Positions 50,782 to 63,849 of a DNA stretch of 64,000 bases are shown piece after piece. Position 1 is the stretch's first letter, and each line of letters begins with the position of its first letter. A program made the translations under genes and the position numbers. Under the pieces are notes generated by a model, which saw only the letters and a program-made list of their open reading frames with translations, searched no databases and was not told where the DNA came from. The stretch covers positions 23,773 through 87,772 of IMG/VR virus record IMGVR_UViG_3300016484_000447; one strand, written 5' to 3'. Source of the DNA: a virus (Duplodnaviria > Heunggongvirae > Uroviricota > Caudoviricetes).

Positions 50782-50813
50782 TCGTTTCTCCTTTGTTTTG
50801 TGTCGAAGCCAGG

Positions 50814-50842
50814 ACTGTAGCACGCACACTGACGGATGTCAA
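50814..50842 (-). promoter_or_regulatory. sigma70-type promoter for the leftward early/replication operon (TTGACA-17-TACAGT)
   Basis: On the minus strand TTGACA (50842-50837), 17-nt spacer, TACAGT (50819-50814). Then GGAG RBS and the ligase GTG. A GCCCTG-GA-CAGGGC dyad sits immediately upstream of the -35. Confidence 0.65.
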
Positions 50843-51060
50843 GCCCTGTCCAGGGCCAGTCCTCGCACACAAGACAGTCCTATACATGCTCTGGAAGAGC
50901 CTTATAACTAGAACTTATAAGACTGCCGGTAGGCAGTCATCATGTACTTAGACAATATGTTAGTGAGTGTCTACTAACGTACTATATAGATTAAAATAGC
51001 ATAGTTCTGGCTGTCGTGCAAGTAGGGTTTACCCCTATCAAAAAGTTTTAGGGATGCCGA
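50843..51060. promoter_or_regulatory. AT-rich divergent control region (possible operators / origin-like features)
   Basis: About 200 bp of ~35-40% GC in a 60-65% GC genome. Contains GACTGCC-GGTAG-GCAGTC hairpin, CTTATAA direct repeats, TTAGT..ACTAA dyad and T/A tracts. Lies between the leftward promoter and the first rightward genes. Confidence 0.4.
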
Positions 51061-51128
51061 AAACCACAGCTTTTTCATGTACACTCCCGTTCACCGTCGA
51101 AACACAAACGCAAGGAAGGAGAAGCAAG

Positions 51129-51371
51129 TTGGGTACTGTCAACACGTTCGCTGTCTACCAAGAGGCCAAGGCCCGCATTGCGGCGAAGACGCACGACATC
51201 AAGGACGAGGTGATCGTCGCTCTCTGGGACGTGACCACGCAGGCGACTGCGATGGCTGCGAACAAGGCCCTGGAAGCTGACGCCGCCCGCAAGACCGTCG
51301 CCGAGTACGCGCACCAGAACGAACTCCTTGCGAGTCGTCTGGCCGGTCAAGCTTCCAAGGCAGTCAACTGA
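51129..51371 (+). CDS. hypothetical protein
   Basis: TTG start 6 nt after GGAAGGAGA. 80 aa Ala-rich. Confidence 0.35.
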   Translation: MGTVNTFAVYQEAKARIAAKTHDIKDEVIVALWDVTTQATAMAANKALEADAARKTVAEYAHQNELLASRLAGQASKAVN

Positions 51372-51372
51372 C

Positions 51373-51528
51373 ATGCCGAAGCTCCACACCGTCGTTTCTG
51401 GCCCGGTTGAAGTGGCGGAGTCCATGTTCAACTCGAAGTTCCTTGCGGCGTGGCTGCTGACGCCGTGCGTCAACGGTGCCGACCACCAAGACGATTTCGG
51501 CCTGTTCATCGCAGGCGGGGAACTCTGA
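51373..51528 (+). CDS. small hypothetical protein
   Basis: 51 aa from MPKLHTV. ATG overlaps previous stop (TGACATG). Confidence 0.3.
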   Translation: MPKLHTVVSGPVEVAESMFNSKFLAAWLLTPCVNGADHQDDFGLFIAGGEL

Positions 51529-51672
51529 CACAGCCCTGGAAGATTTCCGGGACATCTCCCAGAAATGGGAAGTTTTCCAGAACATTTTCCAGGATTTGTG
51601 GCATTTTTACAACACATCTCACACGAAGGAGAGAGCCATCAACATCCCGACCCCACTCCAGCGCATCGCTGC

Positions 51673-52381
51673 CATGAACGAAGCTTTCGGCAATCCTGCC
51701 GGTGACTTCGACAACATTGATCCCCGCGCCCTGCTGAACCAGTGCCGCAACATCTTCGATGAGTACGTCGAACTGCTGCACGCCTTCGGTGTGAGCCCCG
51801 ATGTCCTGCACTCGTTCAAGGTCATCCACAACAACACCCTGTACGGCTTCGAGCCAACCGTGGACAAGATGGACGTGACCGAAGTCCGTGACGCCCTGTG
51901 CGACATCCAAGTCTTCGCAGGCGGCGCCCAACACCTCATGGGCGTCGATGCCGACGTGGACATGCACTCCGTCATCAACGGTGTCATGTCGCGCTTCATC
52001 AAGGACGAAGAAGACAAGCAGGCCACCATCGCCCTGCACGCTGCCAAGGGTGTCACCGATGTCTACTTCGAGGGGGAGTTCCCGCGCATGGTCATGAAGT
52101 CCGCCAGCGACCAGCCCGACGCCCCCAGGGGCAAGTTCCTGAAGTCCGCCAGCTACATGCCGACACGCTTCTACGCTCCCTTGGATGTCCGCTACGCGAA
52201 GGCCCTCGGTGCGAACGATGGTCAGGCAATGGCCTATGCCGGGACTGCTGAGATTGCGCGGGCCAGCGGGAACTCTGTCGATGCAGTGTTCTCTGGCGGC
52301 TCGATGTCGCTGAAGGTCATCGTTCCGACCGTCCCGGTGACTGTGTGCGGGACCGGCATCGTCGGTGCTGCTGACTGCTGA
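51673..52381 (+). CDS. hypothetical protein, possible MazG-like all-alpha NTP-pyrophosphohydrolase N-domain; start uncertain
   Basis: EYVE...EVRD spacing is reminiscent of the MazG ExxE/ExxD motifs. AAGGAGAG RBS at 51626 suggests a non-ATG start near 51644. C-terminal 100 aa Gly/Ala-rich. Confidence 0.35.
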
Positions 52382-52406
52382 CCAAACGCTGCTAGCCTGG
52401 ATTCAA

Positions 52407-52449
52407 GGCCGACTCGGAAATGGTTTCAACTTCGAGTCGGCCAGTTTTT
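52407..52449 (+). terminator. rho-independent terminator
   Basis: GGCCGACTCG...CGAGTCGGCC 10-bp stem followed by AGTTTTT. Confidence 0.75.
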
Positions 52450-52539
52450 CGCTGGGAAAAATGCAGTTTTGCTTGAATAGGTAAGCCCGCCCGCCCCACC
52501 CCAGCCGCCTCGCCGCCCCCGGGCGACCCCACCTGTTGC

Positions 52540-52660
52540 GCGGACGCCACACTTTTCGCATGGCGCAATGGCGCACCGCATGGCGGAACGTTCTGCATGG
52601 TGGCGCGGCGTTTCGCAATGTGGAATTTCACAGGATGGGATGGCGTTTCGCTATGTGGGG
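52540..52660. repeat. iteron-like repeat tract (GCATGGCG x3; TTTCGC[A/T][A/T]TG[G/T]GG x3)
   Basis: ttttcGCATGGCGcaatggcgcaccGCATGGCGgaacgttctGCATGGTGGCG...ggcgTTTCGCAATGTGGaatttcacaggatgggatggcgTTTCGCTATGTGGg. Non-coding 570-bp gap. Confidence 0.4.
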
Positions 52661-52903
52661 GCGGCGGGCTCCAAAAAGTTACGGGCGCAGACGGCCCTTC
52701 AGTCGATTTAGACCGAATGGCGCGATTGTAGCGGGGCGCCCGGCCCCGTCAAGCGGATTTTGGAATACCCGACCACACTGCCGGGTTATTTTTCGAGCGG
52801 GCAGGGGCGGATTACACACCCGGGGGACCGCCTGCGCCGATGCTGTGCCCACAGCATACCACAGAAAATCCCATTAGTGAGAAACCCCGCGAGCTTGTCG
52901 GGT

Positions 52904-52934
52904 TTGACACTTTCCGCGCTGGGTCTGCTATAGT
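52904..52934 (+). promoter_or_regulatory. repeated promoter unit P1 (TTGACA-19-TGcTATAGT + conserved leader GGGAACCACTGCAACACA)
   Basis: Perfect TTGACA. TGn-extended TATAGT 19 bp downstream. 32-nt leader with GGAG RBS to ATG 52967. Confidence 0.55.
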
Positions 52935-52966
52935 GGGAACCACTGCAACACACCGGAGCCCCGGAC

Positions 52967-53152
52967 ATGAAGACCCCCGCCGAACTGGCCCGCCTGTATG
53001 ATGCGGGCGCCCTGGATGAAGTAGCCCGCGAAGCCCTGCGCTATGGCGCAATCCTCGCCGACACTGAGGACCCCGAGAGCCTGACCCGCTGGCGTCATGT
53101 CTGGCAACGCCCGGCGCACATCGCCGACATTCTGGGGCTTCCCGTGGCCTGA
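52967..53152 (+). CDS. small hypothetical protein (array gene a)
   Basis: 61 aa. GGAG RBS. Follows P1. Confidence 0.45.
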   Translation: MKTPAELARLYDAGALDEVAREALRYGAILADTEDPESLTRWRHVWQRPAHIADILGLPVA

Positions 53153-53219
53153 GTCTGGTCTATCACCTGGGGCGCCTACACGTTCCCGGCGAGCTAATAC
53201 CCGACAAAACCGAAGGGGC

Positions 53220-53250
53220 TTGACACCAAGCCCAAAACGTGACACACTGC
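53220..53250 (+). promoter_or_regulatory. repeated promoter unit P13 (GGGGCTTGACACCAAGCCC dyad; -10-like CACTGC/ACACTG)
   Basis: TTGACA sits in a perfect 8-bp-stem dyad. Only ~5 nt separate the hexamer from ATG 53256, so the mRNA may be leaderless. Confidence 0.35.
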
Positions 53251-53255
53251 GAAGC

Positions 53256-53465
53256 ATGGAACAAAAATTTTTCACCGTCAACGTTTCGAGGCAAACGGCA
53301 CACACCGTAAAGCCTGGAAGCAAGACCCATGCAACCATCGCCGCCGCGTGGAAGGGGCAACCCTTTAACATGCGGATTGGCGGGGAGGTTCACCGCATTT
53401 TCAACCATGCCGGGGACGCTGGCCGGTGGCTTGTGTTCCTGCAACTTGACGCCCCCCAAACCTAA
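53256..53465 (+). CDS. small hypothetical protein (array gene b)
   Basis: 69 aa from MEQKFF. Upstream part of the listed ORF contains the promoter. Confidence 0.35.
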   Translation: MEQKFFTVNVSRQTAHTVKPGSKTHATIAAAWKGQPFNMRIGGEVHRIFNHAGDAGRWLVFLQLDAPQT

Positions 53466-53480
53466 ACCGGAGCCCAAACC

Positions 53481-53771
53481 GTGAAGACATCCCACACCAT
53501 CGCCCCCGCTGGCTTCGCCGCCGCCCTGTCTGACCTGGGCAAAGCCTGCGACACCCTGGCGCCCCTGGCCCATGAAAGCCGCGAAGCTTCCGCCGCTCAT
53601 GGTGGCATTCTGGCTGCTGTGGCCGAACTCATCGCAAACGCTGGCCCCGTGGGGGGCGTGAAGATGTCCCGCGCAATGGATGCCGCGACCCGCGCCGGGT
53701 TCGAGGTGGAATTCTACCCGGGTAGCATCCGCGTTTCCCGCAATGCTTCCGCCGCTGGTCAAACCCTGTAA
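53481..53771 (+). CDS. small hypothetical protein (array gene c)
   Basis: 96 aa. GTG start 8 nt after GGAG. Confidence 0.4.
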   Translation: MKTSHTIAPAGFAAALSDLGKACDTLAPLAHESREASAAHGGILAAVAELIANAGPVGGVKMSRAMDAATRAGFEVEFYPGSIRVSRNASAAGQTL

Positions 53772-53785
53772 CCGGAGTCCCGAAC

Positions 53786-54184
53786 ATGGCCCAAAAATTC
53801 CACGCTGACCCCCGAACCCGTTTTGTGCATCCGAACGGGGCGGAGGCTTTCGGGCCTGGGGGTCCGATGGACTGCCTGGGCACCTGGGCGAAGGTGCGAA
53901 AATGCCCGGTCTACCTGGGCGGGGAAGACACCGGGCACCGCCTGACCTGCTACGCCACGGGCTACGCTGACACCGCGTTTTCTGTCCCTGCCTGCACCCG
54001 GTACAAGGGGCAACACATCGGGGGGTTTTTCACCCTGGACGAAAGCAAGGGGGGCGCAGTGTTTCGCGTGGTGGACCGCTACGCCGACAAGCTGCGAGCC
54101 CTGAGCCTGGGCGAAGCCCCGCCCGCAGTGCCCACCCTGGCAGGGCAACGCGCCCGGCTGGAAGCTGGCAAGGGGCAAGCATGA
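53786..54184 (+). CDS. hypothetical protein (array gene d), Cys-containing
   Basis: 132 aa. GGAG RBS. C..C..C..C spacing suggests a zinc-binding region. Confidence 0.45.
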   Translation: MAQKFHADPRTRFVHPNGAEAFGPGGPMDCLGTWAKVRKCPVYLGGEDTGHRLTCYATGYADTAFSVPACTRYKGQHIGGFFTLDESKGGAVFRVVDRYADKLRALSLGEAPPAVPTLAGQRARLEAGKGQA

Positions 54185-54558
54185 CGCCCGGACAAGTCGC
54201 CCGCGCCCTGGAAGCCGCAGAGGCCCGATACTGGGCAGAGGTGGACCGCATCGCCGAAGCTGTCACCCGCGAGAACGTCGCCCCATTCTGCGACCGGCAC
54301 GGGGTCAGATTCCGCCCGGGGATGGGTTCATGGGATTTTGACGGGGCCGCAGCGGAAGACACCCCGCGCCGCCCCGCCCGCGCCTGGGCTAGCTGGGATT
54401 TTTCCGAACTCCCCGCGAAGCTTGCCAAAGTGCTAGACGCCCGGACCATCGGGGGGCATTCCCTGGGGGGCAATCGCCCCGGACTACACCCCGCCGAACT
54501 TCAAAGCCTGAGCGTTTTTGTCGGGCTTGACACTTCCCCCGGGCTTGCTGTGCTATAG
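54181..54558 (+). CDS. hypothetical protein (array gene e)
   Basis: 125 aa. ATGA overlap with gene d. Its 3' end runs through promoter unit P2. Confidence 0.4.
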   Translation: MTPGQVARALEAAEARYWAEVDRIAEAVTRENVAPFCDRHGVRFRPGMGSWDFDGAAAEDTPRRPARAWASWDFSELPAKLAKVLDARTIGGHSLGGNRPGLHPAELQSLSVFVGLDTSPGLAVL

Positions 54559-54559
54559 T
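54527..54559 (+). promoter_or_regulatory. repeated promoter unit P2 (TTGACA-21-TGcTATAGT + GGGAACCACTGCAACACA)
   Basis: Preceded by TTTTTGTCGGG motif. Conserved 18-nt leader identical to P1. GGAG then ATG 54596. Confidence 0.5.
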
Positions 54560-54595
54560 GGGAACCACTGCAACACACAACCCGGAGCAAACGCA

Positions 54596-54799
54596 ATGCC
54601 CTACATTCTGGACGCCCATAACGGCTACTGGTCGCAAGTCATCCGCGCCGACATGGCAAAGGGGCGCACCGCTCAACGGGCGTGCAATGACACCTTTCGG
54701 GCCATTCTTATGATGGGCCGGGGCAAAGCTGAAGCCCTGCGGGTGACGCAAGCCGCTGCACACTTCGCCGGGGTTGCCCCGGAGTCTGTCAACTGGTGA
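54596..54799 (+). CDS. small hypothetical protein (array gene f)
   Basis: 67 aa from MPYILDAH. Confidence 0.45.
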   Translation: MPYILDAHNGYWSQVIRADMAKGRTAQRACNDTFRAILMMGRGKAEALRVTQAAAHFAGVAPESVNW

Positions 54800-54849
54800 A
54801 CCACAGAGCCCCGGAAACGGGGCTACAATCAACGAACGGAGCCCGACAC

Positions 54850-55110
54850 ATGGCGACCTCTTACCGCTTCAAACTGAACGCCCAAAAGGCCGAATTCTAC
54901 CCCTGGGGCTGCGCCGTGGCCTATGGCCTGGACTGCACCCTGAAGGCTGAAGAATTCACCGGCACGCTACCCGAAGCCCTGGCCCGCCTGGAAGCTTTCG
55001 CCGCTGAAGCCCCCGCCCCTTCCCGCTCGTTTCTGCGGGTGGCACCTGGGGAGCGCACGCCCCGGGGCTTCAAGCAAGCGACCACGCACGCCGACCACCG
55101 GAGCGAATAA
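54850..55110 (+). CDS. small hypothetical protein (array gene g)
   Basis: 86 aa from MATSYRF. Upstream AGCCCCGGAAACGGGGCT hairpin, then TACAAT, then GGAG. Confidence 0.45.
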   Translation: MATSYRFKLNAQKAEFYPWGCAVAYGLDCTLKAEEFTGTLPEALARLEAFAAEAPAPSRSFLRVAPGERTPRGFKQATTHADHRSE

Positions 55111-55129
55111 CCCCACAGCCTAAAGGGGC

Positions 55130-55160
55130 TTGACACTGGCCCCGAAAACTGCGACACTGC
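55130..55160 (+). promoter_or_regulatory. repeated promoter unit P3 (GGGGCTTGACACTGGCCCC; -10-like CACTGC; leader GCAAGCACTG)
   Basis: Same architecture. 70-nt leader containing GCCCCGCAAGGGGC GNRA-type hairpin. GGAG then ATG 55232. Confidence 0.4.
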
Positions 55161-55231
55161 AAGCACTGAAGGCGATCCCCGCCGACCTGAAACACAACCC
55201 GCCCCGCAAGGGGCAACCCGGAGCCCCGAAC

Positions 55232-55648
55232 ATGGCACACCCCCTGCAACTCTGCACCGCAAAAGGTGCCGCACACGTCATCGGCCCCGCCAAAGGTGGC
55301 AAAATGTTGGACGAAAAAAAGCTGTCCCGCTCGTTTTCGTTCCTGGCAATCACGCCCGAAGGCGCACCCGAGGAAGTCGCCCGAATTCTGGTCTGGGGCA
55401 CTGCTGCCCGGTCTTACGCCTCCGTTTGGCTGAAGGTTCCCGGGGATTGGCGAGGTGGGCACGCCCACGCCGGGGGCTACGGCTACCACCGGGGGAGCGC
55501 CGCAGTCAATCGCGCCCTGAAGTCTGCCGGGGTGCTGCTGGATTATGACATCGAGGGCCGTGGCGAAACCGCCTATCCTGGCGCAATCGCCGCCGCGCTG
55601 CTGGCCCTGGACGAGTACCGCCCGGTCTACATGCTGCAAGCCTACTAA
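55232..55648 (+). CDS. hypothetical protein (array gene h)
   Basis: 138 aa from MAHPLQL. Confidence 0.45.
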   Translation: MAHPLQLCTAKGAAHVIGPAKGGKMLDEKKLSRSFSFLAITPEGAPEEVARILVWGTAARSYASVWLKVPGDWRGGHAHAGGYGYHRGSAAVNRALKSAGVLLDYDIEGRGETAYPGAIAAALLALDEYRPVYMLQAY

Positions 55649-55670
55649 AGACCCCGCCCCGTGTAGGGGC

Positions 55671-55702
55671 TTGACACTGCCCGGGGAAACCGGGCACAAT
55701 GC
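55671..55702 (+). promoter_or_regulatory. repeated promoter unit P4 (TTGACA ... TGCACAATGC; leader CAAAGCATCGAAACACA)
   Basis: Spacer hairpin GCCCGG-ggaaa-CCGGGC. Leader identical to P7. GGAG then ATG 55734. Confidence 0.4.
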
Positions 55703-55733
55703 AAAGCATCGAAACACACCGGAGCCGCAGAAA

Positions 55734-56111
55734 ATGCCCCGCTACATCCTGACCACCGCCCGCCCCCTGGACAAGACCGACATTAACGAGGTTCTCTCCC
55801 GCCTGCCTGTGGCTGGCCCTGCAACCCTTGAAGATGTCCGCCCCCGCCTGGAAGTGTACGGGCGCCGCTGGTGGCAACAGTCTTACGGCAACACCTACCA
55901 TAGTGTGCGGGTTTTGCTGGATGGCGTCGAGGTGGCACACTGCCCCTATGCCTACGGCTACGGGTCCGCGTACAGTCAAACCGCCGTGAAACTGCTGAAG
56001 CAAGCCGGGATTGTTCCGAGCGATCACCGCGCCGTCGGTGCCTGGGGCCTGTCCGACCTTTTCGACGTGGTGGAAAACGTGGAAGACGTGCAACGGAAGA
56101 AAGACCTTTGA
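55734..56111 (+). CDS. hypothetical protein (array gene i)
   Basis: 125 aa from MPRYILTT. Confidence 0.45.
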   Translation: MPRYILTTARPLDKTDINEVLSRLPVAGPATLEDVRPRLEVYGRRWWQQSYGNTYHSVRVLLDGVEVAHCPYAYGYGSAYSQTAVKLLKQAGIVPSDHRAVGAWGLSDLFDVVENVEDVQRKKDL

Positions 56112-56123
56112 AGCTGTGGGGGC

Positions 56124-56153
56124 TTGACAAGTCCCCCGCAATTCTCAACAATG
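56124..56153 (+). promoter_or_regulatory. repeated promoter unit P5 (GGGGGCTTGACAAGTCCCCC; ...CAATGG + GAACCACTG)
   Basis: TTGACA embedded in G5/C5 dyad. Leader variant of P1. Confidence 0.4.
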
Positions 56154-56205
56154 GGAACCACTGGAAGGCAACCCGCCGACCTGCAACACGTCAACACCTG
56201 ACACC

Positions 56206-56616
56206 ATGAACGCCGAAAACCTGACCCCAGCCGCCCGATTCTTCTACGATCACGCCGGGTATTCCTACAGCCCCGCCACGGAAACAGCGGAAGCCGGGCG
56301 CATCCGCTGCGCCCTTGCCCTGGCTGAAGCTGAAGAGAAGGGCGAAGCCCTGGGCTATTGCGTCCGCTGGGGCGTTGACCCTGACGTGACATCTGCCGAT
56401 TGGGTGGAAGCCGGGCAACCGGGAAGCAAGGGGCACCGCCCGTGGGCGACGTGGCAAGCGACGTGCTACGGGCCGACCCCTGAAGACGAAACCGAAGAGG
56501 CCCCGATTCTGGCAAGCCTGGGCGGGGTTGATTTTGGCCGCAATGGTTCGCCGTTTGGCGACGATTACGCCCGTGTCGTCCGCGCCGAACTCTTCGCCGA
56601 AGCCCTGGAAACCTGA
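56206..56616 (+). CDS. hypothetical acidic protein (array gene j)
   Basis: 136 aa. Confidence 0.45.
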   Translation: MNAENLTPAARFFYDHAGYSYSPATETAEAGRIRCALALAEAEEKGEALGYCVRWGVDPDVTSADWVEAGQPGSKGHRPWATWQATCYGPTPEDETEEAPILASLGGVDFGRNGSPFGDDYARVVRAELFAEALET

Positions 56617-56638
56617 ACCCGCCCGCAAGGGCTGCACA

Positions 56639-56764
56639 ATGTACACCATCAAGAAAACCGGCGCCCTGTGGCAAGTCCTGAGCCCTTCCGGGCTTGTCCA
56701 ATTCCAAAGCCTGCGCCGCATCAACTGCACCGATTGGGTGCGCCAACAATCCCCGACGAACTGA
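56639..56764 (+). CDS. very small ORF (array gene k)
   Basis: 41 aa from MYTIKK. No clear RBS. Confidence 0.2.
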   Translation: MYTIKKTGALWQVLSPSGLVQFQSLRRINCTDWVRQQSPTN

Positions 56765-56781
56765 CCAAAGGAACCGACACC

Positions 56782-56913
56782 ATGCAAGGCAACGCCCACA
56801 CCATCAAGACCCGCAAGACGCAAGCCCCGCAGCGCCCGCGCCTGTCCGAAGAGGCCCGCGCCCGCCGTGCGAAGGCGAAAACCTGGGAGCGAGCCCCCCG
56901 CGCCTGGGCCTAA
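56782..56913 (+). CDS. very small basic ORF (array gene l)
   Basis: 43 aa from MQGNAH. AAAGGAA RBS. Confidence 0.3.
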   Translation: MQGNAHTIKTRKTQAPQRPRLSEEARARRAKAKTWERAPRAWA

Positions 56914-57018
56914 ACGCCCCGCAGAAGCCCGAACGCCTGCCAGTCTAGGCTACCCCACAGCCCCGCCCGCCCCGGGGCTTCTAGAGGCTTACAGCAAAGA
57001 CCCCACAACCCGCTAAGG

Positions 57019-57049
57019 TTGACACCCGGGCGGGTTTTGGTGCTATAGT
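57019..57049 (+). promoter_or_regulatory. repeated promoter unit P6 (TTGACA-19-TGcTATAGT in loop of GGTGC...GCACC hairpin)
   Basis: Spacer contains ACCCG-G-CGGGT-TTTT. The -10 TATAGT lies in the loop of a 5-bp-stem hairpin. GGAG then ATG 57095. Confidence 0.5.
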
Positions 57050-57094
57050 TGCACCATCGCAACCCGCCGCAAGGCACACCACGGAGCCCGCAAC

Positions 57095-57304
57095 ATGGCG
57101 AACTTTATCAAGACCCTGCAAGCCGAAAAGGCCGAAGCCGAAGCCCGCACCGCTGCGACCCTGGAAGCCCTGGAAGAATTCCGCGCCCTGCTGCTGTCGC
57201 CGAAGCATCAAGGGACTGCCCCGGATGGCACCCGTAATGACTGGATCAGCACGGGCGACGTGCTGCGCCGCCTGGAAATGATCCGGCAAGCGTTGACGGG
57301 ATAA
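57095..57304 (+). CDS. small hypothetical protein, coiled-coil (array gene m)
   Basis: 69 aa. Confidence 0.45.
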   Translation: MANFIKTLQAEKAEAEARTAATLEALEEFRALLLSPKHQGTAPDGTRNDWISTGDVLRRLEMIRQALTG

Positions 57305-57323
57305 CCCCGAAACGTGTAGGGGC

Positions 57324-57353
57324 TTGACACCAAGCCCCGAAGCCTGCACAATG
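57324..57353 (+). promoter_or_regulatory. repeated promoter unit P7 (perfect dyad GGGGCTTG-ACAC-CAAGCCCC; TGCACAATGC; leader as P4)
   Basis: TTGACA in 8-bp perfect dyad. The 24-nt leader is identical to P4's. Confidence 0.4.
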
Positions 57354-57389
57354 CAAAGCATCGAAACACAGCGCCACGGAGCCGACACA

Positions 57390-57617
57390 ATGAACCAAGC
57401 CGCCGCCCTTCAAGTCATCGCCATTGCAACCCGCGTGCAAAGCATCGCCAGCATGGCCGATTCTTCCGCGCTGTGCCTGAAGGATGCCCGCGCCCTGGCT
57501 GACCGCAGCGCCTGGAAGTATGCGACCGAACGCGCCCTGAAGGCGATTTTGTACGCTGTGGGGGTGTATGGTCCCGCCTACCGCGAAGCCTGCGCCGTGC
57601 TGGCTTCCCACGCCTGA
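57390..57617 (+). CDS. small hypothetical protein (array gene n)
   Basis: 75 aa from MNQAAAL. Confidence 0.45.
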   Translation: MNQAAALQVIAIATRVQSIASMADSSALCLKDARALADRSAWKYATERALKAILYAVGVYGPAYREACAVLASHA

Positions 57618-57659
57618 GAATGCAACCCGCCCCGCAAGGGGCGCCCCGGAGCCCATGCC

Positions 57660-57860
57660 ATGATCTACATTCAACGCAAGCAAGGCCGCGACCTTGAAAC
57701 CGTGGACGAATTCCCGACCCGAAAGGAAGCCCGCGCCATGCTGGCAGAGTACCGCATGAGCGACCCGGGCGCCCATTTCTACACGTCGGGCCGGGCCTGT
57801 CGCGCCTGGGCTGAAAAGACCGCAGCGCCAGCAAAGCCCGACAAAAACGCTAAGGCTTGA
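57660..57860 (+). CDS. small hypothetical protein (array gene o)
   Basis: 66 aa. Preceded by GCCCCGCAAGGGGCGCC hairpin and GGAG. Confidence 0.4.
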   Translation: MIYIQRKQGRDLETVDEFPTRKEARAMLAEYRMSDPGAHFYTSGRACRAWAEKTAAPAKPDKNAKA

Positions 57861-57887
57861 CACTTCGCCCCGCCCGTGTGCTACACT
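57857..57887 (+). promoter_or_regulatory. repeated promoter unit P8 (TTGACA-19-TGcTACACT; leader GCAAGCACTGCAAC)
   Basis: Overlaps the stop of gene o. ATG 57920. Confidence 0.45.
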
Positions 57888-57919
57888 GCAAGCACTGCAA
57901 CGAACAAAGGCCCGATGCC

Positions 57920-58078
57920 ATGACCGAAAACCAAAAGTTTGCCCTTGAACTGCTGGGCTACCTGCCTGCGGGTTACGTGCTGGTCTGCGAACTGATGAAC
58001 CACCGGGCCTGCGATCTTTGGGGCCGGGCTGGCGCCATTTGCGTCAACGGGCGCACCGTGTACATTTTCAAAATCTGA
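57920..58078 (+). CDS. small Cys-containing ORF (array gene p)
   Basis: 52 aa from MTENQKF. Confidence 0.35.
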   Translation: MTENQKFALELLGYLPAGYVLVCELMNHRACDLWGRAGAICVNGRTVYIFKI

Positions 58079-58087
58079 GGCCACACC

Positions 58088-58729
58088 ATGACCGCACCGC
58101 ACTACACCCCCGCCCGCTACATCGTCCAATTCACCGCAAACCCTGCCACGGGTAAGGGTTCTGTCTGCTGTATCGTGGACACCTGGGGAGTGTATCCCCA
58201 GACGAAGGCCGGGGGTTTGAACGCCCACCGCATCGCCGCCGACTGGAACGCCGGACGCCTGAACCGACACGAAGCCGCAGCAATCGCCCGGCATTTCATG
58301 ATCGCCGCAATCTTCGCCGATGCCCCCGAAGGCACCGCGCCCCGACCGACTGCCCGCGCCCTGGAAGTCGCCGAAGAACTGGCCCGCGAGTTTGTCGCCG
58401 CCCTGGGCCTGCCCCTGTTCCGCGCCTGCCTGGACGCCTACACCGCCGAAGGGCTGCACCCCGACTGCCATGGGGACGCCTGCGCCGCTTTCGGGCATGA
58501 CCTTTATCTGACCCTGGACGGACACGGGGCCGGATTCTGGGACCGGGACGCCCTGGCATGGGACCACAACCCCGAAGAATGCGCCCGCCTGGGGCTTGCG
58601 AAGGGGCAGACCATCGGGGAGAAAATCACCGAAGCGTGCGAGGCTTCCCGCTGGCGTGACGTTGACGGGCTGGAATTTTACCGGGGCTGGGTCTACCTGC
58701 GCGAGCCGATGAAGCCCGCCAATACCTGA
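58088..58729 (+). CDS. hypothetical protein (array gene q), largest in array
   Basis: 213 aa. GAGG RBS. Cys/His-containing (CHGDAC). Confidence 0.5.
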   Translation: MTAPHYTPARYIVQFTANPATGKGSVCCIVDTWGVYPQTKAGGLNAHRIAADWNAGRLNRHEAAAIARHFMIAAIFADAPEGTAPRPTARALEVAEELAREFVAALGLPLFRACLDAYTAEGLHPDCHGDACAAFGHDLYLTLDGHGAGFWDRDALAWDHNPEECARLGLAKGQTIGEKITEACEASRWRDVDGLEFYRGWVYLREPMKPANT

Positions 58730-58744
58730 CAGAACCAAAGGGGC

Positions 58745-58774
58745 TTGACACCTGGGGCGAAAGTCTGCACAATG
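58745..58774 (+). promoter_or_regulatory. repeated promoter unit P9 (TTGACA ... TGCACAATGG + GGGAACCACTGCAACACA)
   Basis: Leader identical to P1/P2. GGAG then ATG 58810. Confidence 0.45.
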
Positions 58775-58809
58775 GGAACCACTGCAACACACAACCCGGA
58801 GCGCACACC

Positions 58810-58998
58810 ATGACCAAGAGCCCGCAAAACATCGGCGACACCCTGAGCTTCAAGACCCCGAAGGGCGAAGCCCTGACGGGCACCATTGAAGGCCGGGCAT
58901 GGTTTGGCGACTGGGTGCAATCCTACGATGTCCGCACCCCCGAGGGGCACCGCTACACTGTCAACACGTCCGGGGAATCCGGGCACCGCTACGCCTGA
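58810..58998 (+). CDS. small hypothetical protein (array gene r)
   Basis: 62 aa. Confidence 0.45.
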   Translation: MTKSPQNIGDTLSFKTPKGEALTGTIEGRAWFGDWVQSYDVRTPEGHRYTVNTSGESGHRYA

Positions 58999-59110
58999 CC
59001 CCACGGCAAAGCCCCTACAAACAATGGGGGCTTTCCTGTGGAGCCTGAAACTCCGCTACACTGTGACCACCACAACCCGCCACAATGGCAACTGAAAGGA
59101 AACCGACACC

Positions 59111-59293
59111 ATGAACGCCGCTCAACGTCGCACCGCCCGCCGCACCATCGCCCGCGCTTTCCCGACCGGCGCCAGCGTGACCACCCCGAAGGGCACCGCC
59201 GCCACCGTGACGGGGCACACCCCCGCCGCCGTGCTGGTGAAGCTGCGCAACGGCCACCGCGCCGCGTACCGTCCCGCCGTGCTGGGCCTGTAA
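59111..59293 (+). CDS. small basic protein (array gene s)
   Basis: 60 aa. AAAGGAAA RBS. TACACT -10-like upstream without a clear -35. Confidence 0.4.
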   Translation: MNAAQRRTARRTIARAFPTGASVTTPKGTAATVTGHTPAAVLVKLRNGHRAAYRPAVLGL

Positions 59294-59382
59294 GCCCGCA
59301 CACAAGCCCGCTAGGGGCTTGCGGAAGGGGCCGACACCCTGACCCCTTCCGCCAATCCCTGCAACGCTAGAAAGCCCCGACA

Positions 59383-59565
59383 ATGGCCCGCATAACGCCC
59401 CGTTTCCTGACCCGCCGCACCGCTGCGAGCTATCGCCACACAGACGAAGTGCCCGCAGAGTTTGGCGCCTGCATGAGTGGGCACCGTGACCGGGGCGAGG
59501 TGGGATTTTCCCTGACCCGCGACGAACCCGGGGAGCCGCTGCCCGAGGGTTCCCGCTGGCTTTGA
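59383..59565 (+). CDS. small hypothetical protein (array gene t)
   Basis: 60 aa. Preceded by 8-bp-stem hairpin GGAAGGGG...CCCCTTCC and a degenerate GGGGCTTGCGG unit. Confidence 0.35.
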   Translation: MARITPRFLTRRTAASYRHTDEVPAEFGACMSGHRDRGEVGFSLTRDEPGEPLPEGSRWL

Positions 59566-59572
59566 AAAACTG

Positions 59573-59603
59573 TTGACCGCTGGCGCCTGTGCTGTGCTAT
59601 GAT
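59573..59603 (+). promoter_or_regulatory. orphan promoter unit P14 (TTGACC-19-TGcTATGAT, -10 in loop of GCTGTGC...GCACAGC hairpin) with no ORF before P10
   Basis: Good extended -10. About 100 nt follow to the next promoter with no ORF, so it may drive a small non-coding RNA. Confidence 0.4.
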
Positions 59604-59705
59604 GTAGGCACAGCATCGGGAACCGGCGCCGGGTGCATAATCCACCCCTGCGCGTTTGCTTTTCACTCTCACATTGCGGAAAGCCCCCCCCACAGAAGAT
59701 AGGAT

Positions 59706-59735
59706 TTGACACCACCCGCAGACATCGCCACAATG
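59706..59735 (+). promoter_or_regulatory. repeated promoter unit P10 (TTGACA ... CACAATGG + GGGAACCACTGCAACACA)
   Basis: Leader as P1. GGAG then ATG 59775. Confidence 0.45.
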
Positions 59736-59774
59736 GGAACCACTGCAACACACCACCGCAACGGAGCAAACACC

Positions 59775-60113
59775 ATGCAAAACGCCATCGCCGAAATCAT
59801 CTCCACCATGACCGAGAATGTGCAAGCCCTGGAAGCCCTGGGCGAGTCCCTGAAGGGTCAAGACCTGGGCGCCGTGTACGTGCTGGAAAATCAGGGGTTT
59901 TTCGTCTGTGTCGAGTCTGGCAAGGCTTCCGCCTGTGGCCTGATTGGTGCGAGCCGCCACACTCAAGCCGAAGCCCTGAAGCTGGCCCGCATCGTCAAGA
60001 ATGGCAACAATCACCCCGCCCGCGCCCTGCCCCTGGGTGAAGCCCTGGCGCACGAACTGGCGCAAGCCCGCGAAACCCTGGCCGACATCGAAGCCCGCGC
60101 CGCCTCCCTGTGA
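59775..60113 (+). CDS. hypothetical protein (array gene u)
   Basis: 112 aa from MQNAIAEI. Confidence 0.45.
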   Translation: MQNAIAEIISTMTENVQALEALGESLKGQDLGAVYVLENQGFFVCVESGKASACGLIGASRHTQAEALKLARIVKNGNNHPARALPLGEALAHELAQARETLADIEARAASL

Positions 60114-60145
60114 ACTGAGGCAAAGCCCCTGCGAATTGTAGGGGC

Positions 60146-60176
60146 TTGACACCTAGCCCCGCTTCCGTGCCATAAT
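60146..60176 (+). promoter_or_regulatory. repeated promoter unit P11 (AAGCCCCT...AGGGGCTTGACAC; TGcCATAAT in GCCAT-A-ATGGC hairpin)
   Basis: Upstream hairpin shares its 3' arm with the -35. Extended -10 CATAAT. GGAG then ATG 60221. Confidence 0.5.
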
Positions 60177-60220
60177 GGCATCACTGCGAACGAAACGCAG
60201 CAATCAACGGAGTGCAGACC

Positions 60221-60403
60221 ATGCGCAAGATTCACGAAGTCACCGGCCCGAAGGGCACCGCCAAAATCTACCGCGATGCCGAGTGGCAAGAGTACCGCGT
60301 GAAGTTTTTCACGCCCGAGGGTGAACACCTGAAGGAAGCCGACCACCACACCGACGACAAGGGCGACGCGAAGCAAACCGCCGAAACCTGGGCGAACTCC
60401 TAA
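60221..60403 (+). CDS. small hypothetical protein (array gene v)
   Basis: 60 aa from MRKIHEV. His/Asp-rich C-terminus. Confidence 0.4.
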   Translation: MRKIHEVTGPKGTAKIYRDAEWQEYRVKFFTPEGEHLKEADHHTDDKGDAKQTAETWANS

Positions 60404-60460
60404 GCAAGCCGAAGCCCCGGGGAAGCCCGGGGCATTCTCAACTCTGAGACAGTCCACGCC

Positions 60461-60811
60461 ATGACCTACACCAGCAAAGGCGCCCGCGCCCTTCAAGCCC
60501 TGACCGCAAAGCATGGGCGCCCCGTTGACTGGCCCGAAGTGGCCCCCGCCCTGTCCCCGCTCATCCTGCGCCGCTTGCGTACCCTGCGGGCTGACAATGC
60601 CCACGGTATCGCCTACGCCGTGGCCGCTGAAGCCCTGGGGCTTGATGCCCTGCGGGTGAAGCTGGAAGACATCAACGCGCAACACCACCGGCGCGGCTGG
60701 CTGACCCCTGAACTGTCCACCGCCCGCAATGCCGCGTATGACGAACTTTTGACCGAAGCCCGGCGCCTGCTGTCCGCTGACGAATTCGCCGCCCTTTACG
60801 CCTGTTTCTGA
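60461..60811 (+). CDS. hypothetical protein (array gene w)
   Basis: 116 aa. Preceded by CCCCGGGG-containing hairpin. Confidence 0.4.
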   Translation: MTYTSKGARALQALTAKHGRPVDWPEVAPALSPLILRRLRTLRADNAHGIAYAVAAEALGLDALRVKLEDINAQHHRRGWLTPELSTARNAAYDELLTEARRLLSADEFAALYACF

Positions 60812-60818
60812 CCCTACC

Positions 60819-61196
60819 ATGACCACAGCCACCGCCCCCGCCGTTTTCTATGTCTCGACCCTGGGCACCCCCGAAGGGGGGCCGGGCGATTACCTGGGCG
60901 AAGCCCCCACAGCCGCCGAAGCCCTGGCCCTGTGCCGCCTGTCCTGCGAGATTCGCAAAGGCCCGCCCGCTGACACCACCACCCGGGCCGGGTCTGCCCG
61001 CCTGACGTTTCAACCCTGGCGCCTGACCCTGGGAACCCGCGAGAAAGTCGCGCAGCGCAAGCCCTGGGCGCTGTTTGTGGGCGGGTCTGCTGTCAACGCC
61101 TACGCCACGCAAGCCGAAGCCCTGGGGCACTGTCTGGCCCGCTATAGCGTGGCCCTGCCCGCCCTGGTTGACGAGTCCGGGAAGCTGTACCGCTGA
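60819..61196 (+). CDS. hypothetical protein (array gene x)
   Basis: 125 aa. 7-nt gap after gene w. Confidence 0.4.
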   Translation: MTTATAPAVFYVSTLGTPEGGPGDYLGEAPTAAEALALCRLSCEIRKGPPADTTTRAGSARLTFQPWRLTLGTREKVAQRKPWALFVGGSAVNAYATQAEALGHCLARYSVALPALVDESGKLYR

Positions 61197-61226
61197 CCAC
61201 AGAAAGACCCCGCCCCGTGTAGGGGC

Positions 61227-61257
61227 TTGACACTTTCGGGCGCCCTGGTGTTATGAT
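61227..61257 (+). promoter_or_regulatory. repeated promoter unit P12 (TTGACA-19-TGtTATGAT in loop of GGTGT...ACACC hairpin)
   Basis: GGGCGCCC palindrome in spacer. GGAG then ATG 61290. Confidence 0.5.
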
Positions 61258-61289
61258 GACACCACACCAAACGCAACGGAGCCCGAAAC

Positions 61290-61646
61290 ATGCACACCCC
61301 CGCAATCACCGTTTACGCTGACCTCTGGCTGACCGCTGACGCCTACAATCCGCGCCTGCGTGCCACTGTCCCGGGTTCCTGGGTTCTGCGCCTGTGGGAT
61401 CGCCTGCCGGGTCAATTCCTGTCGGCCCCTGTGCCTGAATTCTACGGGAACACTCCCGACGAAGCGAAGCGCAACGCCGTGCAAGCCCTGAAGGGCTACG
61501 GGGTGCGGGGAGTGCTGAAGGTTACGCGCTGCGACGGTGACGCCCGCGAAGCCGCAGAGTCCGCAGAGTGGGAGCGGGAGCAGCGTCAAACCCTATGGGC
61601 TGAAATGGGGGGCTATGCTGCGGGTATCCCCCGCCCGTGCCACTGA
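61290..61646 (+). CDS. hypothetical protein (array gene y)
   Basis: 118 aa. Last gene of array, followed by terminators. Confidence 0.45.
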   Translation: MHTPAITVYADLWLTADAYNPRLRATVPGSWVLRLWDRLPGQFLSAPVPEFYGNTPDEAKRNAVQALKGYGVRGVLKVTRCDGDAREAAESAEWEREQRQTLWAEMGGYAAGIPRPCH

Positions 61647-61710
61647 CCACGGCAGACCCTTATTAGCCCTGTACAGGGCCAGCAAAACCGGCCCCAAACG
61701 GGGCCATTCT

Positions 61711-61731
61711 GGGGCCTTTTGGCCCCTTTTT
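61711..61731 (+). terminator. rho-independent terminator
   Basis: GGGGCC-TTTT-GGCCCC followed by TTTTTG. Confidence 0.6.
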
Positions 61732-61752
61732 GCGCCTGGGCGCCAGCACTGC

Positions 61753-62040
61753 CACAAGCCCAAAGCACAAGCAAGGGCGAAGCCCTGGGCGCCCCTGGCG
61801 CAAGCCGGGAAAGACCACAAGCACAACCACAAGCACGGGGCGAGCCGCTACCCGCGCCCCGCCCCAAAGTCTCAGAAAACCGGCCCCGAATGGGGCTTTT
61901 TGTGCTGGCCCCGTCCGGGGCTATACGTGCCCACAAGCGAAAGCCCACAAGCGAAAAAGTGTTGCGCAGCAACAACATAGGGCAATGCCTGCGCCTGGGG
62001 CGCCATACAGCACACAAGCACAAACCCACAGAAAAGCACA
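61753..62040. repeat. CACAAGC direct-repeat tract (>=7 exact copies plus variants; includes 14-bp tandem CCCACAAGCGAAAG x2)
   Basis: Exact CACAAGC at 61753, 61766, 61816, 61828, 61932, 61946, 62013. Variants CACAACC and CACAAAC. Non-coding (no RBS-led ORF). Confidence 0.5.
61881..61901 (+). terminator. rho-independent terminator (second)
   Basis: CCGGCCCC-GAAT-GGGGC followed by TTTTTG. Confidence 0.5.
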
Positions 62041-62218
62041 CAGCACCGGGAAGGGCTTAAATCAGCCCTGGAAGGGCCTAATGCACTGCCCCGAAGGGGC
62101 AGGGCTTGCCCGCGCCCTGGGGCGCCTGTAGGGGCTAAAAAGGGGCTTCATGGGGCGATAGCTTGGGGCTATGCTCTATGGGCTTGCGATAGTGAAGGGA
62201 GGGGGTTTGCTTGATCGC

Positions 62219-62251
62219 AGTTTGCGAAGAACACCAAACGTGGCGTTTTCG
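62219..62251. other. imperfect dyad TTGCGAAGAACAC-N7-GGCGTTTTCGCAA, candidate recombinase site
   Basis: 7-bp perfect inverted ends (TTGCGAA / TTCGCAA), ~33 bp overall, 44 bp downstream of the serine recombinase stop. Shares GGCGTTT(T)CGCAA with the 52.6-kb repeat tract. Confidence 0.3.
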
Positions 62252-62294
62252 CAACAAAGTGGGGCCATTACAGCCTCTGGCCCCGTGGCCCGGG

Positions 62295-62990
62295 TTATCC
62301 CTGCACTCCGAGGGCCTGAAGCCGCTTTAGAACCCCGTGAACCGTGCTAGCGTGCCATTGTCCACCCCTGGCTGTCCTGTTGCCCTGTGCGTTTAGCTCT
62401 GCTGCCATCTGGGCGCACGTCATACCCGCCGACCTCATCCGCAACACCACCGGGGCAAGGTGAAGGGCGAAGCTGTCCGCCTCTGCCTTGATCGCCTGCA
62501 CTGCCGCTGCCCGTGCCCTGGGGCCGCTTTCCTCTGGCGCCCTATGGGACGCTATGCCTAGGGCCTGTCCCCGTGCCTGGAGGGCCTTTAATGCTGCCCT
62601 GGTGCGTTCCCCGATGGTGCGCCGCTCATGCTCTGCCAGCATCGCCTTTAGGTGAAGCTGGAAGGGCTGAACCTCTAGCCCATCCTCTACCGTGGCAAAG
62701 CTGGCCCCTTGGTTCATCAGGGCCGCGACGAACTCAACCGACCGCGATAGTCGGTCAAGCTTGGACACCAGCAAGACGGCCCGCCCCTGGCGTGCCTGTG
62801 CCAGTGCCTGACGTAGACCGGGGCGCCTGTCTAGGCCATAGCCGCCTGACGCTACCTCTTCGACGTGCCCCACCTCTTCCCCTTGGTGCGACTGAATGAA
62901 GCGACGAAGGGCCGCTAGCTGGGCCTCTAACCCATTCCGGCTGTCGCCCTGTTCCTGCGTGCTTACCCTGGTGTAGAGAACGAACCGCAT
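62295..62990 (-). CDS. serine recombinase (resolvase/invertase family) with C-terminal HTH
   Basis: MRFVLYTRVSTQEQ places catalytic Ser at position 10 as in gamma-delta resolvase. Also LVSKLDRLSR and a C-terminal helix-turn-helix. Start placed at second ATG, downstream of a TATAAT. Confidence 0.75.
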   Translation of the reverse strand: MRFVLYTRVSTQEQGDSRNGLEAQLAALRRFIQSHQGEEVGHVEEVASGGYGLDRRPGLRQALAQARQGRAVLLVSKLDRLSRSVEFVAALMNQGASFATVEDGLEVQPFQLHLKAMLAEHERRTIGERTRAALKALQARGQALGIASHRAPEESGPRARAAAVQAIKAEADSFALHLAPVVLRMRSAGMTCAQMAAELNAQGNRTARGGQWHASTVHGVLKRLQALGVQG

Positions 62991-63026
62991 ACGCTGGCCC
63001 CTGTGGAAGTGATCGAAGCCCCGATT

Positions 63027-63055
63027 ATACACGATCTAGACGCCCCTCTAGATTC
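63027..63055 (-). promoter_or_regulatory. putative recombinase promoter (TATAAT) with TCTAGA-N6-TCTAGA palindromic repeats over the -35 region
   Basis: On the minus strand TCTAGAGGGGCGTCTAGATCGTG-TATAAT, 32 nt upstream of ATG 62990. Confidence 0.35.
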
Positions 63056-63313
63056 CTGAATGGGGGCTGTTGCGTGCTGTTCGAGGCAGACGGGAAGGGC
63101 TGGACGGGGCCGGGGCTGTCATATTTTCAGGGCTTGGCACGGGCGAGAAGGGGGAATAGGCCGCCGTTAAGCAACGCACTCACGTATGCCCCACATTCCA
63201 AAATAGCCCCACTCGCGCCTGCATAGGATTTGCATATCGACCCTGCCCTGGTCATATATTCTGGCTATGCCTGCAAGCACTATGCCAAAGTCGGGCTACC
63301 CACCAAATTTTTT

Positions 63314-63812: not shown

Positions 63813-63849
63813 ATAGCTTCCTTCAAGTATAAAGCCGCCTCAAGGGCGG

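Follow-up and report, generated by a model that had tools for sequence, protein, structure and literature searches.

Early genes of T4-type phages are separated by intergenic cassettes known as promoter-early stem-loops (PeSLs), which lie among ORFan genes and each consist of a stem-loop and a strong sigma70 promoter (PMC2839356). So far they are known only from T4-type myoviruses, namely RB49/phi1, PST and nt-1 (Arbiol et al. 2010, PMC2839356; Comeau et al. 2014, PMC4122927). The stem-loops fall into five positional subclasses, of which the one overlapping the -10 box is among the commonest; one stem-loop terminated transcription in vivo about as well as rrnB T1, and recombination between cassettes shuffles the genes that they flank (PMC2839356). 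The stems are typified by the form G(n)-loop-C(n) (PMC4122927). Recombination between PeSLs also yields mini-circles. Here we discuss a hairpin at the -10 box of an early promoter in a 64,000-nt stretch (hereafter the window) of an uncultured Caudoviricetes genome, IMG/VR record IMGVR_UViG_3300016484_000447, positions 23,773 to 87,772, together with the array of similar promoters to which it belongs. The span flagged in a first-pass annotation, 57019-57049, covers this promoter from its -35 to its -10 box but ends before the 3′ arm of the hairpin.

Unlike the T4-type myoviruses, the phage is GC-rich: its genome measures about 88 kb with a GC content of about 0.60, and the window encodes a tape-measure protein of 1,717 amino acids (aa). 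Other products include a tail fibre protein, NrdA, a DNA polymerase (1,155 aa), helicases, a primase/helicase, NAMPT and an ATP-dependent ligase; no tRNA genes were found in the window. A near-identity search returned no match among cultured phages, and the nearest cultured relatives share only 44-55% protein identity. Because of the tape-measure protein and the lack of a close cultured relative, we file the cassettes described below as PeSL-like elements of a new lineage and not as homologues of PeSLs.

Two further systems bear on the comparison. The early promoters of phage N4 consist of a stem of 5-7 bp closed by a 3-nt loop, with conserved bases in loop and stem, have no -35 or -10 boxes, and are read as single-stranded DNA (ssDNA) by a virion RNA polymerase (RNAP) of 3,500 aa. 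Warman et al. (2021) reportedly found that symmetry of the -10 sequence gives rise to divergent transcription from bidirectional sigma70 promoters.

An array of promoter and stem-loop cassettes

The hairpin lies within an array of 14 co-oriented early promoter cassettes on the plus strand (52860-61300). The -35 hexamers of the first seven start at 52904, 53220, 54527, 55130, 55671, 56124 and 57019, and those of the last seven at 57324, 57857, 58745, 59573, 59706, 60146 and 61227. Each cassette is an intergenic unit of 70-120 nt, and most of the gaps between early genes are filled by one. It begins at the stop codon of the upstream gene, usually within TAA/TGA-AGACCCC, and continues through (GGGGC)TTGACA and, after the spacer, a -10-like hexamer, then a conserved start region of the form CAYYGNAAC and GGAGCC to an ATG; the flanks TAA/TGA-AGACCCC...GGGGCTTGACA...GGAGCC-ATG are common to all 14. 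Most cassettes sit 5′ of a small ORFan gene, the one at 59573 having no clear open reading frame (ORF) downstream. None of the early proteins, the products of small plus-strand genes at ~52,900-61,300, belongs to a Pfam family, and those queried against IMG/VR gave no match. A search of Rfam with positions 50,500-64,000 of the window revealed nothing above noise.

The -35 box is a perfect TTGACA in 13 of the 14 cassettes, and two classes can be distinguished by what follows it. Seven cassettes have a spacer of 17-18 nt and a weak hexamer (CACAAT, AACAAT, GACACT or CACACT), while seven have a spacer of 19-21 nt and a TGn-extended -10 box (TATAGT, TATGAT, CATAAT or TACACT). A consensus scan of 50-64 kb identified nine sigma70-like sites, where 2.3 are expected.

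Interleaved with the promoters are one or more short GC-rich inverted repeats. Several bracket the -35 hexamer (53175-61260, plus strand; for instance 57316-57343), in the forms GGGGC-TTGACAnnnn-GCCCC, GGGGG.../CCCCC and AACCCGC.../GCGGGTT. The last of these belongs to the cassette of the flagged hairpin, here called P6, where AACCCGC (57007-57013) and GCGGGTT (57030-57036) enclose the -35 box TTGACA (57019-57024) and are followed by a run of T, so that the whole (57007-57036, plus strand) is terminator-like. The GGGGC arm may alternatively pair with an upstream CCCC(N10) segment, which would yield mutually exclusive hairpins.

In many respects this arrangement resembles that of the PeSLs. The cassettes are repeated intergenic units of ~100 nt, running from an upstream stop codon to a Shine-Dalgarno (SD) sequence and ATG, and carry a predicted near-consensus sigma70 promoter. 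Their stems vary in position, lying 5′ of or over the -35 box, within the spacer, over the -10 box or just 3′ of it, and occur in significant excess over chimeric controls, and the GGGGC-TTGACAnnnn-GCCCC stems are of the G(n)-loop-C(n) form. The cassettes also lie among small ORFan early genes and coincide with insertion/deletion or replacement joints between the window and its closest relative. They are unlike PeSLs in that the -10 boxes are degenerate (CACAAT) or extended with spacers of 19-21 nt, the upstream region is only marginally AT-rich, and most of the -10 stems lack a U-tract. With confidence that is about evenly balanced, we favour the reading that the flagged hairpin is part of an array of composite promoter/stem-loop cassettes, a GC-rich, siphovirus-like counterpart of the T4-type PeSLs.

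Related loci, approximately 90 in number, were gathered via the ligase from IMG/VR, Logan, ENA and JGI; a scan of IMG/VR for the promoter pattern itself returned 14 loci, 13 of them chance matches and one (L014) a possible distant cassette. The closest relative, L105 (ENA ERZ4198739), is a 70 kb contig with a GC content of 0.62 and about 22 cassettes. A second, L016, is more distant, its ligase being 73% identical and its GC content 0.51. Between the window (50001-63315) and L105 the alignment is a mosaic, in which blocks of 81-95% identity are separated by replaced or inserted ORFan genes, and some 50% of the block ends coincide with a cassette or its edge (56209, 57866, 58737-58752, 59537). 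L105 possesses an extra 81-aa gene flanked by its cassettes at 10673 and 10998; the window has one cassette, at 58745, in the corresponding place.

The cassette at 53220 (53243-53267, plus strand) has its first in-frame ATG at 53265, 16 nt past the end of the -10 box CACACT (gcgaagcATGgaac), and no SD sequence; the transcript may have little or no leader. The orthologue in L105 keeps the same sequence, followed by a different 5′ untranslated region (UTR) that includes an SD sequence.

Hairpins at the -10 boxes

Stems of 5-8 Watson-Crick pairs run around or through the -10 box in four cassettes, P6, P12, P14 and P11, all on the plus strand; the z-scores given with them compare the DNA fold with dinucleotide shuffles. 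In P6 (57038-57056; z -3.39) the arms TGGTGC (57038-57043) and GCACCA (57051-57056) enclose the loop TATAGTT (57044-57050), which contains the -10 box TATAGT (57044-57049), the TGn of the extended -10 lying just 5′ of it. An alternative outer arm, AACCCGC (57061-57067), could pair with GCGGGTT (57030-57036) and would then enclose the -10 hairpin. The hairpin of P12 (61246-61264; z -1.79) consists of TGGTGT (61246-61251), the loop TATGATG and ACACCA (61259-61264), and its stem is distinguished from that of P6 by one two-sided change (C-G to T-A). P14, in which the -35 box TTGACC (59573-59578) is followed by a 19-nt spacer, has the arms TGCTGTGC (59590-59597) and GCACAGCA (59608-59615) around the loop TATGATGTAG (59590-59615; z -3.73). 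P11 is the palindrome TGCCATAATGGCA (60168-60180; z -1.82), from which a symmetric extended -10 can be read on either strand. The 1-nt loop first proposed for it (GCCAT-A-ATGGC) is sterically impossible; as a hairpin it would form TGCCA-TAA-TGGCA, with the hexamer mostly in the stem.

In addition, the cassette at 57857 has a weak hairpin (GTGCT, loop ACACTGCA, AGCAC; 57878-57895, plus strand; z -0.55), and mini-palindromes of the same strand are found beside the hexamer in four others. These are AGTGG-GAA-CCACT in P1 (52932-52944; z -1.24), where it shares 3 nt with the 3′ end of the -10 box, and in the P1 paralogue of the 54527 cassette (54557-54569), and ATGC-AAA-GCAT in P4 (55699-55709; z -1.78), within the conserved motif CACAATGCRAAGCATC, and in P7 (57351-57361; z -2.22). 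Five cassettes (53220, 55130, 56124, 58745 and 59706) have stems of 3-4 bp only, no better than chance. Three cassettes therefore have the hexamer in the loop, one has it within a palindrome and four have it beside a mini-palindrome. The first-pass annotation had described the -10 box as repeatedly presented in the loop of a short hairpin, with a stem that flanks or directly follows it, and the sequences it quoted for P6, P12, P11, P14, P1 and P4/P7 are all found in the window; placement wholly in the loop applies to P6, P12 and P14 only, while in P11 most of the box is in the stem, and in P1 and P4/P7 it is adjacent.

Since dinucleotide shuffling destroys the AT-rich centre between GC-rich flanks, it is biased as a control, and nulls that keep position-specific composition were used instead. 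In one, the upstream and downstream segments were shuffled separately; in the other, chimeras were made from the upstream half of one promoter and the downstream half of another. The window cassettes gave a mean Z of -1.30 relative to the segment shuffles (p 0.006) and of -0.75 relative to the chimeras (p 0.06), and 36% of them have the hexamer enclosed by an uninterrupted Watson-Crick stem of 5 bp or more, compared with 9% of chimeras (p 0.006). The same comparison was made with 167 non-identical promoter candidates from the window and its relatives, called blind to pairing by the rule TTGAC[ACT], 16-21 nt, a hexamer with A2/T6, and an SD sequence and ORF downstream, outside long ORFs. Stems of at least 6 bp enclose the hexamer in 9.6% of these candidates and in 2.1% of chimeras (p 6e-7); for stems of at least 7 bp the figures are 5.4% and 0.6%, and for at least 8 bp, 3.6% and 0.2%. 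The -35 box is at the centre of a stem of 6 bp or more in 7.8% of candidates and 2.3% of chimeras. At the control position +45, 6-bp stems reach 4.2% versus 1.8%, and at 7 bp there is nothing. When sorted by loop centre, the stems of at least 6 bp peak in the 6-nt bin on the hexamer (14, versus a mean of ~4 elsewhere) and are commonest from about -24 to +6, a spread in keeping with the varied positions of PeSL stem-loops. Once doubly counted orthologues are allowed for, about 13 cases are independent. The hairpin phenomenon is real, in a minority of promoters: approximately 10% in the clade and 4-7 of the 14 in the window. Of the window promoters, all seven with a 19-21 nt spacer and extended -10 box carry a stem of 5 bp or longer, and none of the seven of the other class does (p 6e-4).

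Among the 167 candidates the stems are unrelated in sequence, as illustrated by GCCGAAGCCGC-ATACAATA-GCGGCTTCGGC, TGATGTGAG-TTAATATT-CTCACATCA, AAGCCGGG-TAAAAT-CCCGGCTT and GATGGCC-TACAATG-GGCCATC. The original proposal was that structure is retained while stem sequence varies, which would argue for selection on pairing and not on a protein-binding sequence. It is partly supported: varied stems recur above chance, but those of P1 and P4/P7 prove to be conserved sequence motifs. The compensatory-type variation to which it pointed comes down to one pair, GGTGC/GCACC of P6 and GGTGT/ACACC of P12, the other stems being unrelated and their positions not homologous.

The strongest case among the relatives is an 11-bp stem, GCCGAAGC(C/T)GC-ATACAATA-GCGGCTTCGGC, found in L027 (14662, plus strand) and L023 (3324, minus strand), which differ by C/T opposite G. 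It encloses the -10 box TACAAT, 16 nt after TTGACA, and is located upstream of a conserved small gene adjoining the primase module.

The short palindromes 3′ of the hexamer are of a different nature. An in-register palindrome, T6-G7-N8 / N12-C13-A14 with a 3-nt centre, is present in 20 of 91 promoters, compared with 1-5 in slid controls, and the pair at positions 8/12 is G-C in 19 and C-G in 16. These palindromes, among them those of P1/P3 and P4/P7 (4-5 bp), reduce to a pair of conserved motifs, CACAATGGGAACC and CACAATGCRAAGCAT. The CACAATGCRAAGCAT-type motif (AATGCRAAGCAT) recurs in promoters of L016, L023, L027, L029 and L105 despite their differing GC content; in L029 the conserved part is only GGGAACC and not the outer half-site. 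In some variants (TGCAAGCA, TGGCACCA) the centre is 2 nt long, and orthologues have either G or A as the first base of the loop, so that GAA and AAA loops interchange. We best read ATGC-RAA-GCAT and TGG-GAA-CCA as conserved discriminator or start-site sequence motifs, possibly a protein site, and do not read the short 3′ palindromes as evidence for selected pairing.

The heptamer GCGAAGC forms a highly stable DNA mini-hairpin (PMC13037366), and its stability was considered as a specific signal. It was rejected as such, as the heptamer is found throughout the window mostly in coding sequence and GAA and AAA loops interchange. Across the whole window it occurs 42 times, where dinucleotide shuffles lead one to expect 16, mostly on the coding strand of coding sequence, an excess that is likely to stem from codon or dipeptide usage.

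Comparison of orthologous promoters, which the first-pass annotation had put forward as a check, yielded both retention and loss. Most -10 regions of L105 are identical to those of their window orthologues, and are uninformative for that reason; the inner P6 hairpin (at 8214 in L105) is among them. In L105 the P6 arms that flank the -35 box have changed on both sides, AACCCGC/GCGGGTT becoming AGCCCGC/GCGGGCT (A>G / T>C), which keeps the -35 stem, again followed by a T-run, and at the same time leaves the proposed outer stem around the -10 hairpin with a C.A mismatch. The only compensatory change in P6 supports the putative -35 stem. The P1 block is otherwise about 95% identical in L105, and both sides of the -10 box differ there: AGTGG-GAA-CCACT is replaced by GGCCT-GCTATAGTGA-AGGCC, with an N10 loop. 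Two P6-type paralogues of L105, at 9687 and 12149, possess no stem.

In L016 the P6 orthologue has a canonical terminator followed by TATACT and no -10 hairpin, the P11 palindrome is lost, the P4 stem is broken (ATCC-AAA-GCAT) and the P14 stem is reduced from 8 to 4 bp. The orthologues of P7 and of the 57857 cassette have different 4-bp stems around the hexamer in L016 (TGCC...GGCA and GGGC...GCCC); as 4-bp stems are equally common in chimeras, these are within chance. Three substitutions in retained stems give G.T on the sense strand (G.U in RNA), namely CCGCT in L016, GCTGC/GCCGC between L023 and L027, and one in the P14 stem of L016. Taken together, the evolutionary evidence is mixed, with turnover and some re-creation, several losses, and one clean covariation favouring the -35 stem. 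Some homologous promoters keep the hairpin in another form, while others lose it.

Two further hairpins lie downstream of these promoters. P14 is followed, ~15 nt past its predicted start, by GCGCCGGGTG-CATAATC-CACCCCTGCGC (59626-59653, plus strand) and then GTTTGCTTTTC. The block that contains them (59598-59668) is conserved in L016, where the outer stem has changed in a compensatory manner from GCGC/GCGC to GCCC/GGGC, and the loop again resembles a -10 hexamer (CATAAT; TATAAT in L016). This is a candidate non-coding RNA of ~55 nt. Downstream of P11, the 5′-UTR hairpin CTGCG-AACGAAA-CGCAG (60184-60200, plus strand) is found verbatim in the L016 orthologue, despite the loss of the -10 palindrome there.

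Role of the stems and competing explanations

The stem arms fill the sequence-free positions flanking the constrained hexamers, such that either the -35 or the -10 box lands in a loop; we propose that the arms occupy these positions because the intergenic space is so short. If the cassettes are PeSL-like, the stems would work chiefly at the RNA level, as stem-loops in transcripts reading through from co-oriented cassettes upstream, where they might attenuate or insulate transcription or stabilise the 3′ end, and the conserved cassettes may double as recombination joints that shuffle ORFan modules. The three G.U-compatible substitutions and the T-run after the -35 stem of P6 are weak hints of a role at the RNA level.

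Several observations weigh against this reading. The 8 nt past the 3′ arm hold 0-2 T in P6, P12, P14 and P11, and most of the -10 stems, being without a U-tract, fall short of a canonical intrinsic terminator. The 167 candidates revealed no strand asymmetry, the enrichment being similar whether G.T or A.C pairs are allowed, and the RNA and DNA levels are consequently inseparable on this ground. A comparison of sense with antisense RNA folding was uninformative, being confounded by the A/C-rich composition of the sense strand. Hairpin promoters have a co-directional gene upstream in 14 of 16 cases and other promoters in 109 of 151, a difference that is not significant (p 0.24). The 30 nt upstream of the -35 box are A-rich, but weakly so (AT 0.41, versus 0.36 for the region). 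Furthermore, the peak of stems on the -10 box and their confinement to the extended -10 class hint at promoter mechanics, and neither is predicted by a model in which stems form wherever the sequence is free.

The alternative that survives best, though we consider it unlikely, is that the hairpins have no function as such. The complementarity would be a by-product of two conserved motifs, the (G)GTGC of the TGn-extended -10 and the GCAC/CCAC/GCAT of the start site, with -10 symmetry (possibly bidirectional extended -10 promoters such as TGCCATAATGGCA) and cassette duplication adding to it. Stems of 4 bp are indeed as common in window chimeras (48%) as in the real promoters (50%), the mini-palindromes reduce to two families of conserved motifs, and several orthologues are without stems. 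The resemblance to bidirectional sigma70 promoters points the same way, since TGCCATAATGGCA of P11 and the TGn-N7-nCA of P6 and P12 carry -10-like hexamers with TGn on both strands, and their spacing (7-nt or palindromic) is that expected for opposite-strand -10 boxes offset by 1 nt. The stems of P6, P12 and P11, however, run 2-3 bp past the TGn, and the longest stems, including those of the relatives (11, 9, 9, 8 and 8 bp), have no TGn and loops of 4-14 nt. Chimeras retain the two motifs, yet stems of at least 6-7 bp are four to nine times more frequent in the real promoters. The replacement of the P1 stem in L105 by a new 5-bp stem, through changes on both sides within a block that is otherwise so similar, is a further argument against a by-product.

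A second alternative, likewise among those raised in the first-pass annotation and which we hold to be rather improbable, places the function at the DNA level. Under negative supercoiling the inverted repeat would open at the AT-rich -10 box and extrude a small cruciform, which would either present that box single-stranded or occlude it, with the consequence that a subset of the early promoters would be gated by supercoiling. An AT-rich centre between GC-rich arms is a geometry favouring central opening in cruciform extrusion, whereas cruciforms with 5-8 bp arms and 7-14 nt loops are energetically poor. In favour of extrusion, perfect Watson-Crick stems alone are clearly enriched, with no preference for G.T; the stems peak exactly on the hexamer; and those of the window are confined to the extended -10 class, the 19-21 nt spacers of which prevent optimal use of the -35 box. 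Nevertheless, the -35 box, which is read as duplex by sigma region 4, is bracketed in a like manner, and orthologues drop the stem yet keep the promoter: P11 and P6 do so in L016, where P14 is shortened from 8 to 4 bp. L105 also has the stemless P6 paralogues. The sharp centring on the -10 box and the link with extended -10 promoters of over-long spacer are the residual novelty of the locus, and they keep a role at the DNA level alive, if only with a small probability. In its most specific form the proposal is that selection keeps the -10 box at the centre of a freely turning-over inverted repeat in a subset of the host-dependent promoters of this ~80-95 kb phage clade, P1 being an example with AGTGG/CCACT in the window and GGCCT/AGGCC in L105; the repeat would act as DNA and, by extruding or breathing, offer sigma70 a pre-melted -10. 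We regard the chance of this as slim. If it were true, these would be supercoil-gated extended -10 promoters that need no correctly spaced -35 box.

Thirdly, ATGC-N3-GCAT and AGTGG-N3-CCACT over the -10/+1 region could be operators, sites at which a dimeric regulator of phage or host shuts off the early promoters, although we judge the chance of this to be slim. What speaks for operators is that the sequence itself, and not just the pairing, is conserved: AATGCRAAGCAT occurs in promoters of five relatives, the in-register palindrome exceeds its slid controls as described above, and the 2-nt-centre variants TGCAAGCA and TGGCACCA retain the half-sites where no hairpin can form. The long stems, on the other hand, all differ in sequence (P6, P12, P14 and those of the relatives), L029 conserves GGGAACC without the outer half-site, and no candidate regulator was identified among the early proteins, which belong to no Pfam family. 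A shared operator was also considered for the P6/P12 palindrome and rejected; GGTGY-N7-RCACC has no further copies in the window, which makes such an operator unlikely for that class.

Finally, a promoter of the N4 type, in which a phage RNAP would read a hairpin on extruded ssDNA, or a 5′-terminal stem-loop on the promoter's own transcript, both raised in the first-pass annotation, is most improbable: the GAA (GNA-type) triloops of TGC-GAA-GCA and TGG-GAA-CCA do resemble the stable mini-hairpins of the N4 mini-vRNAP (PMC13037366), but every cassette has a sigma70 -35 box with a -10 or extended -10 box (TTGACA in nearly all), the loops of the significant hairpins measure 7-10 nt and not 3, GAA and AAA interchange between orthologues, and no ORF resembling an RNAP of the virion or T7 type was found in the 64 kb window (no ORF exceeds 1,808 aa, and the largest real ones encode the tape-measure protein and the DNA polymerase; ~24 kb of the genome lies outside it), while the 5′ arms of P6, P12, P14 and P11 lie upstream of or inside the -10 box, ahead of a start predicted from standard spacing at ~7 nt past the hexamer, and would therefore be absent from the RNA made at their own promoter.

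Surroundings of the array and significance

The early array is separated from the minus-strand genes by a non-coding stretch of ~640 nt (61650-62290, plus strand), inside which canonical terminators are arranged back-to-back at 61689-61726. Seven of the 20 copies of the heptamer CACAAGC in the window are found at 61753-62019, all on the plus strand. This cluster looks iteron-like, and the stretch could be an origin of replication or a regulatory region.

The excess of stems of at least 6 bp, which occur at about four to five times the chimera frequency and peak on the -10 box, offers a clean handle on whether they act as RNA or as promoter DNA. If the PeSL-like reading is right, cassettes that both regulate and shuffle early genes would not be peculiar to the T4-type phages but would have arisen convergently in an unrelated, GC-rich lineage of uncultured phages, and such cassettes would be useful markers of early regions and recombination joints in metagenomic phage genomes.

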